From IMG/VR virus record IMGVR_UViG_2548877009_000015: 4,143 nt of DNA; one strand, 5' to 3'. Under the pieces are notes generated by a model, which saw only the letters and a list, made by a program, of their open reading frames with translations, was not told the DNA's origin and did not search any database. The DNA is from a virus (lineage: Duplodnaviria > Heunggongvirae > Uroviricota > Caudoviricetes). How positions within the stretch are numbered: the stretch's first letter is position 1; every line of letters starts with the position of its first letter. The translations under genes and the position numbers were made by a program. This document shows, one piece after another, positions 85-4,143 of this stretch.

Positions 85-380
85 TTTTTACCCCTGAATC
101 CGTTAATCATTGTTTTCAGCTTCTGGATGTTTGCCCGTGCTCTGGCGTTGCTGGTGGGCACGTTATGCGGCGCGGTCTGTACCAGAGAAAAATCACGCCG
201 GAACTGATAAACAGGCATCACGCAATCATATTCGTAACCTTCACGGCGGTAAGTTACGCACCGTCCCGCCACGCCCTTAATCATTACCGTACCGCCGTAC
301 TGGTCGCGGTAAATATCACCGCGCGTAAATTTAGGGTGAGTGTTGCCACTGGCAGTTAAGCCAGAATATTTAAGCTTCAT
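81..380 (-). CDS. Hypothetical small protein F, 99 aa
   Basis: ATG at 378-380 with GGAG about 10 nt upstream (inside the last codons of E). TGA stop overlaps the ATG of the next ORF (ATGA at 81-84). Gly/Tyr/Arg-rich, beta-like sequence KFTRGDIYRDQYGGTVMIKGVAGRCVTYRREGYEY. Confidence 0.55.
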   Translation of the reverse strand: MKLKYSGLTASGNTHPKFTRGDIYRDQYGGTVMIKGVAGRCVTYRREGYEYDCVMPVYQFRRDFSLVQTAPHNVPTSNARARANIQKLKTMINGFRGKK

Positions 381-385
381 TATTT

Positions 386-619
386 TTATTCTCCGGTGTG
401 GGGCGCTTTATACTGGTCGTGTAATGTCTCTATTTCCTGCAACTCATTTATTACAGGCTCAAGAAGCGTTATTAATGCCGTGGCAATTCTTGATTTTTGT
501 TTGTCGCGTTCATTGTCGCCAAGTGTTTCAAGCCATATGCGCAATATTTCCATCATATTTTCACTGTGAGAAAGTGCAAGAAATACGCGATCTGTTGTTT
601 CGTGGTAAATATCACGCAT
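386..619 (-). CDS. Hypothetical small protein E, 77 aa
   Basis: ATG at 617-619, 1 nt after the stop of D, with GGGGA upstream. Helical-looking sequence. No family recognised. Confidence 0.55.
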   Translation of the reverse strand: MRDIYHETTDRVFLALSHSENMMEILRIWLETLGDNERDKQKSRIATALITLLEPVINELQEIETLHDQYKAPHTGE

Positions 620-620
620 A

Positions 621-842
621 TTAATCCCCGTCCGTCGCTTTTCTTAAAATAACCTCTGTCACGAAATCAGCATAGTTAGCGGCAATATCAAGAATATTTA
701 GCCCTGTATCTCTGTGCTCATCAGTGCAAAGAAAGAAAAAAGCCACCCGCATAATTTCAGATATTGACGAAAGCGCATCAGCCGCATCATCAGGAACGCC
801 GGAAAATTCCTGTTTCAGGGAATTAAAACGATCATCACGCAT
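621..842 (-). CDS. Hypothetical small protein D, 73 aa
   Basis: ATG at 840-842 directly downstream of the G-run, which can act as a Shine-Dalgarno. TAA stop is separated by 1 nt from the start of E (TAATATG). Confidence 0.5.
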   Translation of the reverse strand: MRDDRFNSLKQEFSGVPDDAADALSSISEIMRVAFFFLCTDEHRDTGLNILDIAANYADFVTEVILRKATDGD

Positions 843-1075
843 AACCCCCCCCCATTTTCACAATCAGCAATCAGGATGGCTTTGGCCTCATTCAGCGCCA
901 TATCAGCACTAAGTTGCATAACCGCCAGCGAATGAGGAACGAAAGCCCCTGCATATTCTGTTTCACTGGTGGCGTGCTTATGCGCCCTGTCAGCAATAAC
1001 AGAAATATCAATAAGCGCGAGCATCAGCGTAGTGAGCGCGGCGGCGGTTGCGTCCGGACGGATGTTATTGCACAT
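815..1075 (-). CDS. Hypothetical small protein C, 86 aa from the internal ATG (track ORF starts at 1132)
   Basis: ATG at 1073-1075 preceded by GGAGGGG with a 6-nt spacer; overlaps the end of B by 11 nt. Contains a hydrophobic stretch AAALTTLMLALIDISVIA. Its C-terminal Gly-Gly-Gly is encoded by the G9 tract. Confidence 0.5.
   Translation of the reverse strand: MCNNIRPDATAAALTTLMLALIDISVIADRAHKHATSETEYAGAFVPHSLAVMQLSADMALNEAKAILIADCENGGGLCVMIVLIP
845..853. repeat. Homopolymer C9 (G9 on the coding strand) at the C/D junction
   Basis: Nine consecutive C at 845-853. On the minus strand it reads GGGGGGGGG-TT-ATG, directly upstream of the start of D and inside the 3' end of C. Confidence 0.9.
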
Positions 1076-1298
1076 GGTGTACCCCTCCGCATTTTTTTTC
1101 GTTAGAAATAAGCGTTCTTCTTTCCTGTTCATCGCTCAGGAATACGCAGACCTCACCGCTAAGGCGTTTAAGTAAGCCGATGATTGCCCCTGATTCGCTG
1201 TCGGTCATCATGCCAGGGTAATCCTCTGCCAGTGCGCAAATAACTTCGATTTGGTGGGCGCGTTCTGCTGCCTGTTGTAGTGTGATTTCCTGGCTCAT
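1065..1298 (-). CDS. Hypothetical small protein B, 77 aa, from the ATG-initiated start (track ORF extends to a TTG at 1355)
   Basis: ATG at 1296-1298 overlaps the stop of A (ATGA) and is preceded by GGAGG with a 7-nt spacer. Acidic, helical-looking MSQEITLQQAAERAHQIEVICALAEDYPG... Confidence 0.55.
   Translation of the reverse strand: MSQEITLQQAAERAHQIEVICALAEDYPGMMTDSESGAIIGLLKRLSGEVCVFLSDEQERRTLISNEKKCGGVHHVQ
1092..1099. repeat. Homopolymer T8 (A8 on the coding strand) at the B/C junction
   Basis: Encodes Lys-Lys (GAA AAA AAA) near the C-terminus of B, immediately upstream of the Shine-Dalgarno of C. Confidence 0.9.
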
Positions 1299-1489
1299 AA
1301 GCCTACCTCCTGACGAATACGGGCGGCAAATACAGCAACACAACCGGACGGGCAACGGTTACGCGCTTCGCGTTCCGTCCAGGCGGTTACGTGGATGATT
1401 TGAGATTCTCCGGCACTCAGTGCCAGAAAACGCCACACAAAGGCCGTTTGTGTGTGTACAAGGTGTGGTATATGATTTACAGCAACCAT
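1295..1489 (-). CDS. Hypothetical small protein A, 64 aa; first gene of the leftward operon
   Basis: ATG at 1487-1489 preceded on the minus strand by AGGAG with a 5-nt spacer. TGA stop overlaps the start of the next ORF (ATGA). His/Cys pattern HIPHLVH...CPSGC. No family recognised. Confidence 0.55.
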   Translation of the reverse strand: MVAVNHIPHLVHTQTAFVWRFLALSAGESQIIHVTAWTEREARNRCPSGCVAVFAARIRQEVGL

Positions 1490-1518
1490 AACGGCTCCTA
1501 GTTTACGTTGTTGGTTAG

Positions 1519-1551
1519 AAGCCCGGTTAGTGTTCGCGCACAGCCGGGCTT
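1519..1551. other. GC-rich inverted repeat / stem-loop in the leader of the leftward operon
   Basis: AAGCCCGG (1519-1526) and CCGGGCTT (1544-1551) form an 8-bp stem with a 17-nt loop. On the plus strand it is followed by GC and T6 (1555-1560), which is terminator-like. Confidence 0.4.
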
Positions 1552-1576
1552 TGCTTTTTTAAGTGCCCTTGTGTTA

Positions 1577-1588
1577 AGGTGTACACCT
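1577..1588. promoter_or_regulatory. Operator-like site 1, perfect 12-bp palindrome AGGTGTACACCT in the divergent promoter region
   Basis: Perfect inverted symmetry read directly from the sequence; lies between the divergent starts at 1489 (minus) and 1622 (plus). Confidence 0.5.
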
Positions 1589-1611
1589 ATCGAGTAAAAA
1601 CATAACGCAAT

Positions 1612-1623
1612 AGGTGTACACAT
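1612..1623. promoter_or_regulatory. Operator-like site 2 (AGGTGTACACAT, GTGTACAC palindromic core) overlapping the regulator start codon
   Basis: Shares ATAGGTGTACAC with the reverse complement of site 1; centres are 35 bp apart; the 3' end overlaps the ATG at 1622-1624. Confidence 0.5.
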
Positions 1624-1816
1624 GTCAACGGTTATTAAGCGTGATAAAAAACCAAAGGGAACAGGTAAAGCCCCCCCGTTCCATATGCGAATATCTCCAG
1701 AACTGAAAGAACAGTTTGATAACGAGGCTAGCAATGATGGAGTAAGCCTAGCCAACTGGCTTAAAGAGTTGGGGCGCACTGAACTAAAGCGGCGCGGCAT
1801 AGAACCCAAAGGATAA
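1622..1816 (+). CDS. Ribbon-helix-helix (Arc/MetJ-like) DNA-binding protein, 64 aa; putative repressor of the divergent promoters
   Basis: Basic N-terminal tail KRDKKPKGTGKAPP, then FHMRISPELKEQFDNEASNDGVSLANWLKEL, which fits the beta-strand / helix / Gly-turn / helix pattern of Arc-like proteins. Two palindromic sites lie immediately upstream. AGG 7 nt before the ATG; TAA stop at 1814-1816. Confidence 0.65.
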   Translation: MSTVIKRDKKPKGTGKAPPFHMRISPELKEQFDNEASNDGVSLANWLKELGRTELKRRGIEPKG

Positions 1817-1873
1817 AAACCATCAGCGCCGTGGTGTGAGGTACTCCGGCGCATTGCTTTACCGGTACACACA

Positions 1874-2077
1874 ATGACCAACAAAGAATCAACCAATACA
1901 CCATCGCAAAAAACGAACAGAGAGCACGAAAATATGGCGCTCGAGCATGAATCAGCAAGATTCGCACCATGCGCTTTTGTCCTTGATGAGTTTCTAAAAA
2001 AATATTCACGTTCTGAACGGATGAAAATGGCAGCACAATACGGCCCCAACAAGCAAGATAATTGCCCACCAGCCTGA
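1874..2077 (+). CDS. Hypothetical small protein, 67 aa (or 47 aa from the internal ATG at 1934)
   Basis: ORF between the regulator gene and the plus-strand terminator with hydrophilic K/E-rich composition. No clear Shine-Dalgarno at either start. Could instead be a non-coding 3' region. Confidence 0.3.
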   Translation: MTNKESTNTPSQKTNREHENMALEHESARFAPCAFVLDEFLKKYSRSERMKMAAQYGPNKQDNCPPA

Positions 2078-2144
2078 TCGCGGTTATCATGCCCGGGCTT
2101 ATGATTGTTGACACATACGGCGCAGCGGGTTAATTGTTCAGAAA

Positions 2145-2173
2145 GGTGGCTCCATTTCGGGGCCGCTTTTTTT
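2145..2173 (+). terminator. Rho-independent terminator closing the plus-strand regulator transcript
   Basis: Stem 2146-2153 GTGGCTCC pairs with 2159-2166 GGGGCCGC (two G-U wobbles), loop ATTTC, then T7 at 2167-2173. On the minus strand the wobble pairs become mismatches and no U-run follows, so it is essentially unidirectional. Confidence 0.55.
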
Positions 2174-2198
2174 ATGTTCATCATTTGCCCTATATATG

Positions 2199-2405
2199 TT
2201 AAGCGGTCGTTCCGCGCGCTTCTTGTTCGCGTTCTTTCATCCATGCGATTACGTCTTCCTCATACCATCCGCGACGGCGCAAACCGACACGAAAACCCTG
2301 CGGGAATTCTCCGGCGTTGATCATGCTTTGCAGCGTGCTGTCTGCCTTAATGTGGATAAGTTTTTTTACTTCCTGGCGAAAGATGACTTTTTTGATTGCT
2401 TCCAT
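2199..2405 (-). CDS. alpA: AlpA-family winged-helix transcriptional regulator / excisionase-like protein, 68 aa
   Basis: Translation ...FRQEVKKLIHIKADSTLQSMINAGEFPQGFRVGLRRRGWYEEDVIAWM fits the AlpA/Vis/TorI pattern (R..EV..L....ST......G.FP......G.R..W.e.dv.aW). ATG at 2403-2405 preceded by GAGG with a 9-nt spacer. Same orientation as int. Confidence 0.8.
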   Translation of the reverse strand: MEAIKKVIFRQEVKKLIHIKADSTLQSMINAGEFPQGFRVGLRRRGWYEEDVIAWMKEREQEARGTTA

Positions 2406-2420
2406 CGTGATTTACCTCAT

Positions 2421-2512
2421 TAATCCGGTGTATTCCGGTGAGAAATACGGTAAATCATCGGATGCAGGGAAAAACAGTACTCACCGTTTTTAAACGGTAT
2501 ACACCGTTTTTT
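2421..2512 (-). promoter_or_regulatory. Promoter/operator region of the AlpA-family gene with a repeated CGGT(G/A) motif array
   Basis: Tandem 10-mers TAATCCGGTG (2421-2430) and TATTCCGGTG (2431-2440); ACGGT at 2447-2451 and 2494-2498; inverted copies CACCG at 2482-2486 and 2502-2506; hairpin-like ACCGTTT-TT-AAACGGT at 2483-2498. Lies between the int-operon terminator and the alpA ribosome-binding site. Confidence 0.45.
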
Positions 2513-2536
2513 ATATTGATGATTTGAAAGGGATTT

Positions 2537-2564
2537 ATAAAAAAAGCGGCATTTCTGCCGCTTT
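2537..2564 (-). terminator. Rho-independent terminator for the int transcript
   Basis: Minus-strand RNA reads GAAAGCGGCA-GAAA-UGCCGCUUUUUUUAU: 6-bp GC stem (2546-2551 / 2556-2561) extendable by A-U pairs, GAAA tetraloop, then U7 (plus-strand A-run 2539-2545). Confidence 0.7.
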
Positions 2565-2572
2565 CAGGATTG

Positions 2573-2803
2573 TTACCGCCATTTTTTTGGCCTGCCTCCG
2601 GTCTTCATGGATGCCGGACGTACAACCTTATCAATACTTACAGCCAGATTTCTGGAAGCCCCACGGGATACCAGGAAATCTACTACCTGTTTTTTTGATG
2701 GGGCCGTCGTTCTGTCCTCCGGATCGTAGGTTGACCAAAATTCATGCTGAACCATCAGGGCCAGTTGCAGCCCGTCGCAATTGCATCTGAAATTTGTTTG
2801 CAT
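2573..2803 (-). CDS. Hypothetical small protein, about 76 aa from the first ATG (track ORF extends to a TTG at 2824)
   Basis: ORF between the int stop and the terminator; its stop (2573-2575) lies 11 nt upstream of the terminator stem. No convincing Shine-Dalgarno before the ATG at 2801-2803, and no recognisable family. Confidence 0.3.
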   Translation of the reverse strand: MQTNFRCNCDGLQLALMVQHEFWSTYDPEDRTTAPSKKQVVDFLVSRGASRNLAVSIDKVVRPASMKTGGRPKKWR

Positions 2804-2858
2804 CTTAACAGTTTCATTTTTCAAGGCCTCGTCGTTAAATGTGATGCAATTATACGAC

Positions 2859-2893
2859 GGTTTTAAATGGTTTTCGTAGTTTTTACTGGTTTT
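2859..2893. other. Helically phased T-tracts (putative intrinsically bent DNA) just downstream of the int stop
   Basis: GGTTTT at 2859-2864 and 2869-2874, GTTTTT at 2879-2884, GGTTTT at 2888-2893; T-tract spacing about 10 bp. Confidence 0.4.
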
Positions 2894-2901
2894 CTGTACA
2901 G

Positions 2902-4143
2902 CTAAACGGCTCGGATACCCCTTTTACCACTGGCGAGGGTTACGCCCGTCGCCGCAGCCTCGACAAATTCGCCCCACCAGCGCATAAGCACGATGCGTTT
3001 TTCTATGTAGTTGCTCCGGTTGTATGCCCGTCTGACTTCGTTGGTGTCGACGTGGGCAAGTGCGGCCTCTATTACGTCTGGCTCAAAGCCTTCTTCGTTC
3101 GCTGCTGTGCTGAATATGGCGCGTAATCCATGAGACACCAGCACGCCAGCGAATCCCATGCGTCGTAATGCTGCGTTAGCGGTCTGGCTGTTCATCGGCT
3201 GCTGTGGGTCTTTCAGACTCGGGAAAACATAATCGCGGTGGTGGCTGATTGGTTTCATAGCCTCCAGCACTGCCATAGCCTGGTCACAAAGCGGGATAAC
3301 GTGGTCGCGGCGCATCTTCATGCGTCCGGCGGGTATGGTCCAGCGTTGCGCTTCCATGTCGATTTCTTCCCAGCGTGCCGACGATGCTTCAACGGGACGG
3401 GTTACGGTCAGTAACTGCCATTCAATCAGTAATCTGGTCTGCCGTTCTGTTGCCGATACTGATAAAGCCTGCATAAGCTCCGGCAGCTGTTCGGGGCGGA
3501 TTGTTGGCATATGTTTTTTTACAGGGGAGGGGAACGCCTTACGCACATTCATAGCCGGATTGGCATCAATCATCCCACTATTGGCGGCGTAATCCATTAC
3601 CTCATTTATACGCTGTAAAACTCGCTTGAGCGTTTCCAGGTTGCCACGTTCCTTGATGGGGGTAAGCACCTCAACGAACCTGCGAGCGGTCAGGGTGTCT
3701 ATTGGCGTGTTGCCGATGAACGGGAATACATATTTTTCCAGCGATCGCCAGATGTCTTTAATCGTATTGGGGGCCAGATTCTGGCTGATTTTCACCTGGT
3801 ACCATGCTGTTGCCACATTTTCGAACGTGTTCCCTTGTCTTCGGGCCTCTGTCTCTCTTTTTTGCCTCTCGTGGTCCTGCGGGTCAGTTCCGGCACGAAT
3901 TAACGCCCTGTACTCGCTACGGCGTTTTCTGGCATCAGCCAGGGAAACATCATCAAGCGATCCAAAACTCAGCAATATTCTTTTTTTGTCCGATGGTCGG
4001 TAGTAGGAAAATCTCCAGAGTTTTGATCCGGACGGTTTGATCAGGAGAAAAAGCCCTCCGCCGTCCTGTAGGGTGTATTCCTTTTCTGCTGGTCTGGCTG
4101 CTTTGATCTGTACTGTGGTTAATGGGGGTGTTTTTCTCGCCAT
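2902..4143 (-). CDS. int: Tyrosine recombinase, P4-family phage integrase, 413 aa
   Basis: 413-aa ORF starting MARKTPPLTTVQIKAARP. N-terminal arm-binding-type region (DGGGLFLLIKPSGSKLWRFSYY...SLADARKRR). C-terminal catalytic signature with Arg in TRPVEASSARWEEID, HGLR (HxxR box) and LAHVDTNEVRRAYNRSNYIEKR with the catalytic Tyr, then MRWWGEF. ATG at 4141-4143 (cat on plus), TAG stop at 2902-2904. Confidence 0.95.
   Translation of the reverse strand: MARKTPPLTTVQIKAARPAEKEYTLQDGGGLFLLIKPSGSKLWRFSYYRPSDKKRILLSFGSLDDVSLADARKRRSEYRALIRAGTDPQDHERQKRETEARRQGNTFENVATAWYQVKISQNLAPNTIKDIWRSLEKYVFPFIGNTPIDTLTARRFVEVLTPIKERGNLETLKRVLQRINEVMDYAANSGMIDANPAMNVRKAFPSPVKKHMPTIRPEQLPELMQALSVSATERQTRLLIEWQLLTVTRPVEASSARWEEIDMEAQRWTIPAGRMKMRRDHVIPLCDQAMAVLEAMKPISHHRDYVFPSLKDPQQPMNSQTANAALRRMGFAGVLVSHGLRAIFSTAANEEGFEPDVIEAALAHVDTNEVRRAYNRSNYIEKRIVLMRWWGEFVEAAATGVTLASGKRGIRAV

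Follow-up and report, generated by a model that had tools for sequence, protein, structure and literature searches.

A predicted two-layer control region, an Arc-like repressor with a SymR-type antisense RNA, before the replication operon of a phage-satellite-type island

The DNA analysed here, called the window throughout, is a stretch of 4,143 nucleotides (nt) from a tailed-phage-like virus record (Caudoviricetes; IMG/VR IMGVR_UViG_2548877009_000015). At positions 1440–1630 it carries what is probably a two-layer control region for a gene resembling the host cell-division inhibitor Icd (1295–1489, minus strand) and the replication operon that this gene heads. One layer would be an Arc-like repressor, encoded divergently by a 64-residue open reading frame (ORF) at 1622–1816 on the plus strand, and the other an antisense RNA of the SymR type. 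We put the probability of this reading, which is drawn from sequence comparison, at about three in four. The results that carry it are computational: the fold and homology of the 64-residue protein, paired sites that co-vary between loci, natural swaps of the whole unit, the promoter hexamers, and the structure, strand and SymR homology of the RNA.

The 64-residue regulator is an Arc-like ribbon-helix-helix (RHH) protein, judged by its sequence and modelled fold. A profile built from 21 family members and run against PDB sequences has its best match in P22 Arc (E = 0.002, a marginal value for a profile of 64 residues), aligning regulator residues 12–59 with Arc 2–49. Residues 19, 21 and 23 thereby fall on Arc Q9, N11 and R13, which we take to be the base-contacting strand residues of the Arc–operator structure (1PAR), and F20 falls on F10. 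The AlphaFold2 model (predicted local distance difference test score, pLDDT, 78) has an extended segment at 19–25, with the β-strand P19-F-H21-M-R23-I, and helices at 26–38 and 43–57; Foldseek returns Arc structures as top matches (1myl, 1par and 1bdv; probability 1.0, target TM-score up to 0.86). Matches to Pfam and NCBIfam are all below threshold, namely the TraJ amino terminus and the RHH domain of HicB (19 bits, cut-off 21 bits). The family comprises 27 clusters at 90% identity, with 128 matches at E ≤ 1e-3 among 1.84 billion representatives. Homologues keep the N-terminal 21 residues as protein, and the start at 1622 is therefore right; in some of them the codon at the equivalent position is TTG, CTG or GTG. 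A C-terminal tail, G-I-E-P-K-G, is near-invariant in the family and an N-terminal arm, RDxxPKGxGKxP, is also conserved; tetramerization, partner binding or a degradation signal are possible roles for the two. NCBI names the homologues ‘HicB family antitoxin’. We considered and rejected membership of the HicB antitoxins (type II HicAB): the 64 residues correspond to the RHH part alone, the HicB score stays under its cut-off, and there is no hicA-like neighbour.

Two palindromes lie between the Icd-like start codon (1487–1489) and the regulator ATG (1622–1624). Site 1, AGGTGTACACCT at 1577–1588, is a perfect 12-bp palindrome. Site 2, AGGTGTACACAT at 1612–1623, starts 35 bp further on (likewise centre to centre), includes the regulator’s Shine–Dalgarno (SD) sequence (AGGTG, 1612–1616) and ends on the A and T of its ATG. 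Both were located by pattern searches and recur in related loci. Within the window the case for them is modest. The exact core GTGTACAC occurs only at sites 1 and 2, and five matches with at most one mismatch stand against 1.09 expected, a number reached in 1 of 200 shuffles; in 72 of 3,000 first-order Markov windows (2.4%), some 8-bp palindrome is present in two identical copies no more than 60 bp apart. A partial third copy, GTGTACAA at 1454–1461, falls in the spacer of the antisense-RNA promoter described below; it has no counterpart in other GTGTACAC-class loci and is probably due to chance. Elsewhere in the window, including the alpA and int promoters, we saw no further operator copy; partial sites at 1454–1461, 1075–1086 and 2495–2506 are apparently not conserved.

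Comparative evidence is decisive. We assembled 66 loci of 8 kb from many Enterobacterales genera and counted site recurrence over 57. The locus-specific 8-mer at −8 from the regulator start recurs exactly, directly or reverse-complemented, near −43 (−39 to −43) in about 40 of the 57 loci, and beyond these two paired positions it is found almost nowhere in the 8 kb. Both copies of the core change in concert while the 23-bp stretch between them drifts, and the spacing in homologues is 31–35 bp. The operator classes correspond nearly one to one with the β-strand motif of the adjacent regulator: PFH, the class of the window, goes with GTGTACAC (also written GGTGTACACC); QFR with GTGACCAC (also GGTGACCACC); QFK with GTGGCCAC (also GGTGGCCACC); HFK with GGGGCCCC; TFQ with GTACGTAC (also GGTACGTACC); AFQ with GTACATAC or GTACACAC (also GGTACATAC or GGTACACAC); M/LFN with GTCTATAC (also GGTCTATAC); and IFS with GTCCATAC (also GGTCCATAC). 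The outer GGT/ACC of the sites and R23 of the protein are constant across classes. A single regulator/operator class can front unrelated leftward genes, encoding Icd-like or Ash-like proteins, a 176-residue protein or the SymE toxin. In tblastn searches of the 66 loci with the window’s other proteins, the neighbours proved mostly unrelated, which rules out a conserved operon partner and demonstrates that the cassette is mobile.

Exchange is also seen between islands that are otherwise nearly identical. Window and Escherichia coli 95-3322 (locus L001) share 98.2% identity over 1306–1529 and 99.6% over 1810–4143, with 1530–1809 replaced. The exchanged cassette thus holds the 3′ half of the second RNA hairpin, both promoters, both operators and the regulator coding sequence. 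Its replacement in 95-3322 encodes an unrelated 59-residue regulator of the ‘YlcI/YnfO family’, preceded by three copies of a GTGTTnAACAC palindrome (L001 10293–10346). A 101-residue protein bearing the same family name occupies the same slot in locus L077; neither it nor the 59-residue protein has a significant Pfam match. E. coli O157 AR-0430 (L074) has the left flank of the window and a cassette of the QFR/GTGACCAC class. A shared E. coli backbone (Int, AlpA, orf67 and Icd at 98–99.6% identity) thus carries different regulator-plus-operator cassettes; the backbone proteins stay constant while the sites change, and the sites therefore belong to the regulator, as whose operators they most likely behave. 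In E. coli 30345_1#186 (L076), a cassette of the MFN/GGTCTATAC class lies beside a gene for a Mor-family transcription activator and an IS5 element, and not in an integrase/AlpA island.

Promoter predictions place the two sites precisely. Conservation was counted over 51 distinct sequences, and the starts given are predictions rather than measured transcription start sites. The promoter of the Icd-like operon, Pleft (1599–1628, minus strand; promoter-scan score 10/12), has the −35 hexamer TTGACA at 1628–1623, an 18-bp spacer and the −10 hexamer TATGTT at 1604–1599, with a predicted start near 1592. TTGACA is exact in 47 of the 51 sequences, and 49 have an nAnnnT hexamer 16–19 bp (mostly 18 bp) away. 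This −35 is the complement of TG-TCA-A from the start codon and following codons of the regulator; the serine codon there is nearly always TCA, and TGTCAA is therefore retained. The regulator’s own promoter, Pright (1551–1580, plus strand), consists of a −35-like TTGCTT (1551–1556), an extended −10 TG (1572–1573) and TAAGGT (1575–1580), with a predicted start near 1587; TGnTAnnnT at the fixed position of −47 from the start codon is kept in 40 of the 51 sequences. The two promoters are thus predicted to face each other, their starts crossing at about 1587 (rightward) and 1592 (leftward). The Pleft spacer, from −35 to −10, is occupied by site 2. Site 1 overlaps both the −10 and the start of Pright and corresponds to roughly +5 to +16 of the leftward transcript. 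On the simplest and best reading of this geometry, the protein would repress the leftward operon and, negatively, its own gene.

The original prediction had described a repressor switch, a divergent promoter region with two palindromes next to an RHH gene. The palindromes, their 35-bp separation and the overlap of the second with the start codon stand as described, the gene does encode an RHH protein, with Arc as its closest solved relative by profile and Foldseek, and the motif search in homologous islands that it proposed returned the paired cores near −43. The switch itself gains from the co-variation of the sites with β-strand and cassette and from their overlap with both promoters, binding and regulation being comparative readings. 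Promoters for both divergent units are indeed conserved, but they lie face to face, not back to back. What does not hold is a tandem operator bound by a dimer of dimers in the manner of Arc, Mnt or CopG. Arc-type geometry, a cooperative dimer of dimers on subsites about one helical turn apart, is absent, and 35 bp (31–35 bp in homologues) is too long for contacts between adjacent dimers; the sites therefore look like two separate operators, one for each of the overlapping, face-to-face promoters.

Over half of the 1490–1625 interval, described in the original prediction as a divergent promoter region, has a role that was overlooked there: positions 1484–1560 (plus strand) appear to encode a SymR-family cis-antisense RNA of about 77 nt, with predicted ends, over the Icd-like SD and start codon. 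A plus-strand hairpin with a T-run (1519–1560) and a weak Rfam SymR match gave the first clues. The RNA comprises hairpin SL1 (1484–1516), which covers the Icd-like start codon and carries in its loop a CUCCU complementary to the SD, a GC-rich hairpin SL2 (1518–1552) and a U-run (1553–1560). Its target is a 64-residue ORF starting at CAT 1487–1489 (minus strand), with an SD, AGGAG, complementary to 1495–1499; NCBIfam phage_ICD_like matches it at E = 5e-18, in agreement with the RefSeq annotation of homologous islands. A predicted promoter within the first Icd-like codons (1448–1476, plus strand) has a −35-like TTGTGT (1448–1453), a 17-bp spacer and a −10 TATGAT (1471–1476). In an alignment of 53 sequences a TAnnnT hexamer is conserved some 7–10 nt upstream of AGCCAT, and it aligns with the −10 of E. 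coli K-12 symR, TAGAAT.

RNAfold gives the window RNA −31.3 kcal/mol (z = −4.4). Folded one by one, all 50 distinct homologues adopt a common plus-strand two-hairpin fold: in the first hairpin AGCCAU is paired with GUGGUU and CUCC lies in the loop, and the second is GC-rich. In each of the 50 the plus strand also folds more stably than the minus, with a mean advantage of 12 kcal/mol and 3–8 G–U pairs against 0–2. RNAalifold on a plain MAFFT alignment returned no structure owing to misalignment, and we relied instead on per-sequence folding and covariance-model alignment. A covariance model built from ten of the loci, R1, scores 73.9 bits at window 1484–1560 and matches nearly every locus at the equivalent place; against the annotated K-12 SymR it scores 30.5 bits (E = 8e-5) at 2336–2417 of the K-12 locus L073 (annotated 2336–2412), with an identical 5′ end. 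On the R1 alignment 87% of cells are paired, compared with 69% in shuffles and at most 46% when the alignment is slid; compensatory changes occur in 23 of 26 pairs, and none of 500 shuffles reached the observed score. L045 has a second SymR-like copy (5788–5865, 35.7 bits) some 1.9 kb downstream of its first one. At E ≤ 0.1, scanning eight related loci with Rfam gave tRNA-Sec and nothing else; the Rfam SymR model is too narrow for these sequences. We rejected an immunity RNA of the P1 C4/P4 CI type: neither strand has an Rfam C4 or isrK match at E ≤ 1, and the structured RNA is on the opposite strand.

SymR itself is a stable 77-nt RNA made from a promoter inside the symE ORF; it mainly blocks SymE translation, and LexA represses the symE promoter (PMC1891008). 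The K-12 symE/symR locus aligns block by block with our loci, its symR −10 (TAGAAT) and 5′ end (AGUCAU) coinciding with theirs. Where K-12 has its LexA box, CTGTATATATCATCAG, these loci have the regulator promoter and site 1; no CTG-N10-CAG occurs within 1490–1640 of the window. In about 18 related loci (the TFQ class) the leftward target is a SymE-family toxin (PF08845, E = 4e-17); elsewhere it is the 176-residue or the Ash-like protein. The divergent SymE gene belongs to the Citrobacter/Enterobacter/Kluyvera class (within L032–L066, for example L036, L041 and L050), about 140 nt upstream of the regulator, and in three such loci the unit lies about 1–3 kb from tRNA-Sec. Across the unrelated leftward proteins the first eight or so codons (MAxxxST...) are alike because they overlap the antisense promoter.

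We propose the following mechanism. In the first layer, protein made from Pright would bind the two 12-bp (pseudo)palindromes, of general form AGGT-N4-ACCT. Occupancy of site 2, in the −35/−10 spacer of Pleft, would block RNA polymerase; occupancy of site 1 would give negative autoregulation and might form a roadblock just 3′ of the Pleft start. Facing promoters with crossing starts would also compete directly. Operator specificity would come mainly from β-strand residues 19 and 21, with the invariant R23 probably reading the invariant GG/CC. In the second layer, a constitutive promoter in the first Icd-like codons would make the SymR-type RNA, fully complementary to SD and start codon, which by analogy with SymR and symE would block translation, and partly destabilize the mRNA, of transcripts that escape the first layer. 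Together the two would hold off the toxic first gene of a satellite island. Candidates for the inducing signal are a helper-phage antirepressor and read-through from an AlpA-controlled promoter upstream.

Several points weigh against this reading. Binding, the direction of regulation and the start sites all come from comparison. The correlation between residues and operators reflects about eight class transitions, not 57 independent events, since the regulator gene lies next to its sites and is inherited with them. Control by two sites is not universal: L030–32, L039, L040, L044, L048 and L057 have lost one of the two, and the Citrobacter/Enterobacter class has a weak Pleft −10 of the CAAGAT type. 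A spacing of 35 bp, or 3.3 helical turns, is unlike that of known RHH operators. As to the RNA, Rfam SymR (RF01809) scores 26.8 bits (E = 0.044), where its gathering score is 61. Many homologues, and K-12 SymR as well, have a weak U-run or none after SL2, and with the 3′ end uncertain, read-through into the regulator gene is possible.

Four other explanations need weighing. The RHH protein might only autoregulate, or might be a type II antitoxin that neutralizes a partner protein, the leftward operon not being its target. RHH antitoxins typically autoregulate, site 1 covers the regulator’s own −10, and both the NCBI names of homologues and the weak Pfam HicB match point that way. That match, however, falls short at 19 against 21 bits, the 64 residues include no additional toxin-binding domain, and there is neither a co-transcribed toxin nor hicA. 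Divergent partner genes of at least four unrelated families speak against a specific protein–protein partnership, and site 2 sits exactly within the conserved Pleft spacer. We consider this explanation unlikely.

The sites might instead be arms of an RNA or cruciform hairpin (1579–1595 with 1605–1621) that hides the regulator SD, AGGTG, against an anti-SD-like CACCT, their co-variation being that of base pairs. The inverted repeat is indeed 17 nt long and 88% complementary, the non-palindromic cores of the AFQ, N and S classes are mutual reverse complements, and with a weak terminator after SL2 in many loci, read-through RNA could span both arms. The QFR core GTGACCAC, however, is non-palindromic and directly repeated in L005, L009, L011, L016, L017, L062 and L074, which would leave central mismatches in a stem, and L012 has the core inverted; a symmetric dimer with tolerance at the central base pairs accounts for either orientation. 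The predicted Pright start (about 1587) leaves site 1 outside the mRNA, the alternative cassette of L001 has three direct palindrome copies and no hairpin geometry, and the core co-varies with β-strand residues. The hairpin thus appears very unlikely to account for the pairs.

Another protein (AlpA, integrase, orf67, or a host or helper factor) might bind the palindromes in place of the RHH protein. AlpA is the master activator of Gram-negative phage-inducible chromosomal islands (PICIs; PMC6092414), and binding by the RHH protein is itself a comparative reading. Against this, window and L001 share Int, AlpA, orf67 and Icd-like protein (98–99.6%) and yet differ in sites and regulators, and across genera the site class follows the RHH β-strand amid unrelated neighbouring genes; we regard another binder as highly improbable. 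Chance palindromes in an AT-rich intergenic region, for which the 2.4% of Markov windows could be cited, are refuted by the concerted change of both sites in about 40 loci at fixed spacing, and we give them next to no weight.

By its gene content the setting is an integrase/AlpA island of phage-satellite type (Gram-negative PICI or P4-like) with putative helper dependence, which fits the layout of int, xis-like gene, repressor and early operon that had been noticed at the outset. It has an integrase by a tRNA gene, AlpA, a replication module (primase/helicase), small size and a partial set of phage genes; Gram-negative PICIs have a four-zone organization (PMC10111431). Chromosomal islands matching the window are present in 1,574 of 5,426 complete E. 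coli genomes. In the phage collection, megablast with the window gave no DNA-level match, and tblastn with the regulator gave five records only, none informative. The island of E. coli 95-3322 sits at tRNA-Pro, and its order is integrase, small ORF, AlpA-type helix-turn-helix (HTH) gene, two small plus-strand genes, Icd-like gene and small ORFs, then DUF4222, RepA helicase, PerC and a protease/capsid fusion. Other E. coli versions (L074, L075 and L077) carry P4-family primase, DUF927 or BRO-N genes.

Downstream of the regulator lies a 67-residue ORF with no assigned function (orf67, 1874–2077, plus strand), probably co-transcribed with it; it has no Pfam match, is present in L001 and is absent 3′ of the regulator in L075. 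Beyond it, the sequence and the terminator part of the Rfam alignment indicate a terminator-like hairpin (2148–2164) with a T-run (2167–2173). This structure is predicted to terminate plus-strand transcription and looks weak in the opposite direction; read-through from alpA into the leftward operon is therefore possible, and we speculate that it could act as a bypass. Farther on, a palindrome, AAACGGTATACACCGTTT (2492–2509), lies between orf83 and alpA; it is terminator-like on both strands in our scan, differs from the operator 12-mer by three mismatches (at 2495–2506), and could be a terminator or an AlpA/Int-related site. In a C tract at 845–853 the window has nine C and 95-3322 seven, and with this 2-nt difference the 150-residue coding sequence of 95-3322 (L001 9562–10014) becomes two overlapping ORFs in the window, 621–842 and 815–1132; slippage, phase variation, a pseudogene or a sequencing error are possible causes. 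We do not accept the 248-residue minus-strand ORF (1498–2244) as a gene: it lies antisense to the conserved Arc-homologous ORF and to orf67, crosses the hairpins and has a sequence that looks non-protein-like, and it is very probably spurious. Its counterpart in O157 AR-0430 (L074 3076–3819) is a RefSeq ‘hypothetical protein’, and the Arc-like gene there is left unannotated.

Arc-type repressors, SymR, and antisense or RNA immunity ahead of icd-type genes are already known. New here would be two spaced operators, on face-to-face promoters, for an Arc-like repressor; a divergent member of the SymR RNA family; and the packaging of repressor and RNA as an exchangeable cassette that heads satellite replication operons in at least eight specificity classes. 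In the literature on P4-like and PICI satellites, whose searchable coverage is incomplete, we found no description of an RHH repressor with a SymR-like RNA. If the reading is true, an Arc-like repressor on the replication-operon promoter adds a layer of repression to Gram-negative phage-inducible islands, and operator, protein and RNA together give a concrete handle on how helper phages switch islands on. The SymR family would extend beyond symE to Icd-like and other first genes, with LexA control replaced by a private repressor, and the natural variants at residues 19 and 21, each with its matched operator, form a ready test set for how RHH proteins read DNA. For annotation, RefSeq pipelines sometimes call a spurious 247-residue antisense ORF instead of the regulator, homologues carry the name ‘HicB antitoxin’, and the RNA is left unannotated. 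More tentatively, at somewhat less than even odds, the repressor, its two operators, the SymR-type RNA and the first eight or so codons of the target could be a portable lock, shuffled among Enterobacterales satellites and prophages with at least eight specificities and non-homologous replacements. It would be the missing immunity or master repressor of some Gram-negative PICI or P4-like satellites, and one or two β-strand residues would amount to an RHH recognition code.

Among known systems, the immI region of phage P22 has a small RHH repressor on an operator inside a promoter, overlapping promoters, and an antisense RNA over the ribosome-binding site of a harmful early gene. The window is predicted to resemble immI (Arc, Mnt, Pant/Pmnt and sar) in each of these three respects, and Arc is the closest solved relative of the regulator in sequence and fold, with an N-terminal arm KGxxKxP and a strand x-F-x-x-R in common. 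The regulator differs from Arc in ten extra N-terminal residues and a conserved C-terminal GIEPKG. The Arc operator is one 21-bp site of subsites 11 bp apart, bound by a tetramer, whereas each promoter here has its own 12-bp palindrome, with 35 bp between the two. The regulator gene is oriented divergently to the one it would control, unlike in P22, where it is upstream in the same operon, and the antisense RNA is homologous to SymR and not to sar. Coliphages P2 and 186 also have facing promoters with overlapping transcripts and a small repressor acting on one of them; the predicted overlap here is only about 5 nt, the repressor is RHH and not HTH, and the element is a satellite.

As in P1 c4-icd-ant and with the P4 CI RNA, an Icd-type gene heading an early operon would be restrained by a small RNA. 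C4 and CI, however, arise by processing of same-strand RNA from upstream of the gene and have repeated target sites, while the RNA here comes from the opposite strand. The ‘dynamic zone’ of Gram-negative PICIs is reported to contain small immunity RNAs (PMC10111431). A parallel in position and inferred role is the master repressor Stl (Rpr) of Staphylococcus aureus pathogenicity islands (SaPIs) and other PICIs, whose gene is likewise divergent from a satellite excision/replication operon (PMC6092414); the Stl proteins of Gram-positive cocci share no homology with the regulator, being large HTH proteins that helper-phage proteins inactivate. In Gram-negative PICIs the global repressor is reported as unclear, with AlpA an activator (PMC6092414).

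The closest parallel to the second layer is SymE/SymR (RF01809; PMC1891008). Both have a cis-antisense RNA of about 77 nt that starts 3 nt inside the ORF from a promoter within it and covers start codon and SD, a two-hairpin shape with the blocks AG(U/C)CAU, UG(A/G)UUAG and GUGUUnnCGCAC, and a site for a transcriptional repressor just past the RNA 3′ end. Kawano et al. (2007) had already remarked on RHH factors encoded in the same operons as some SymE genes, and saw protein and RNA as alternatives (PMC1891008). The differences are that the window’s target is Icd-like rather than SymE, an AbrB-fold toxin, and that the RNA misses the Rfam gathering score. The LexA box, moreover, is replaced by predicted operators for an Arc-like repressor encoded in the cassette itself, and the whole unit stands in a mobile satellite island, ahead of a replication operon.

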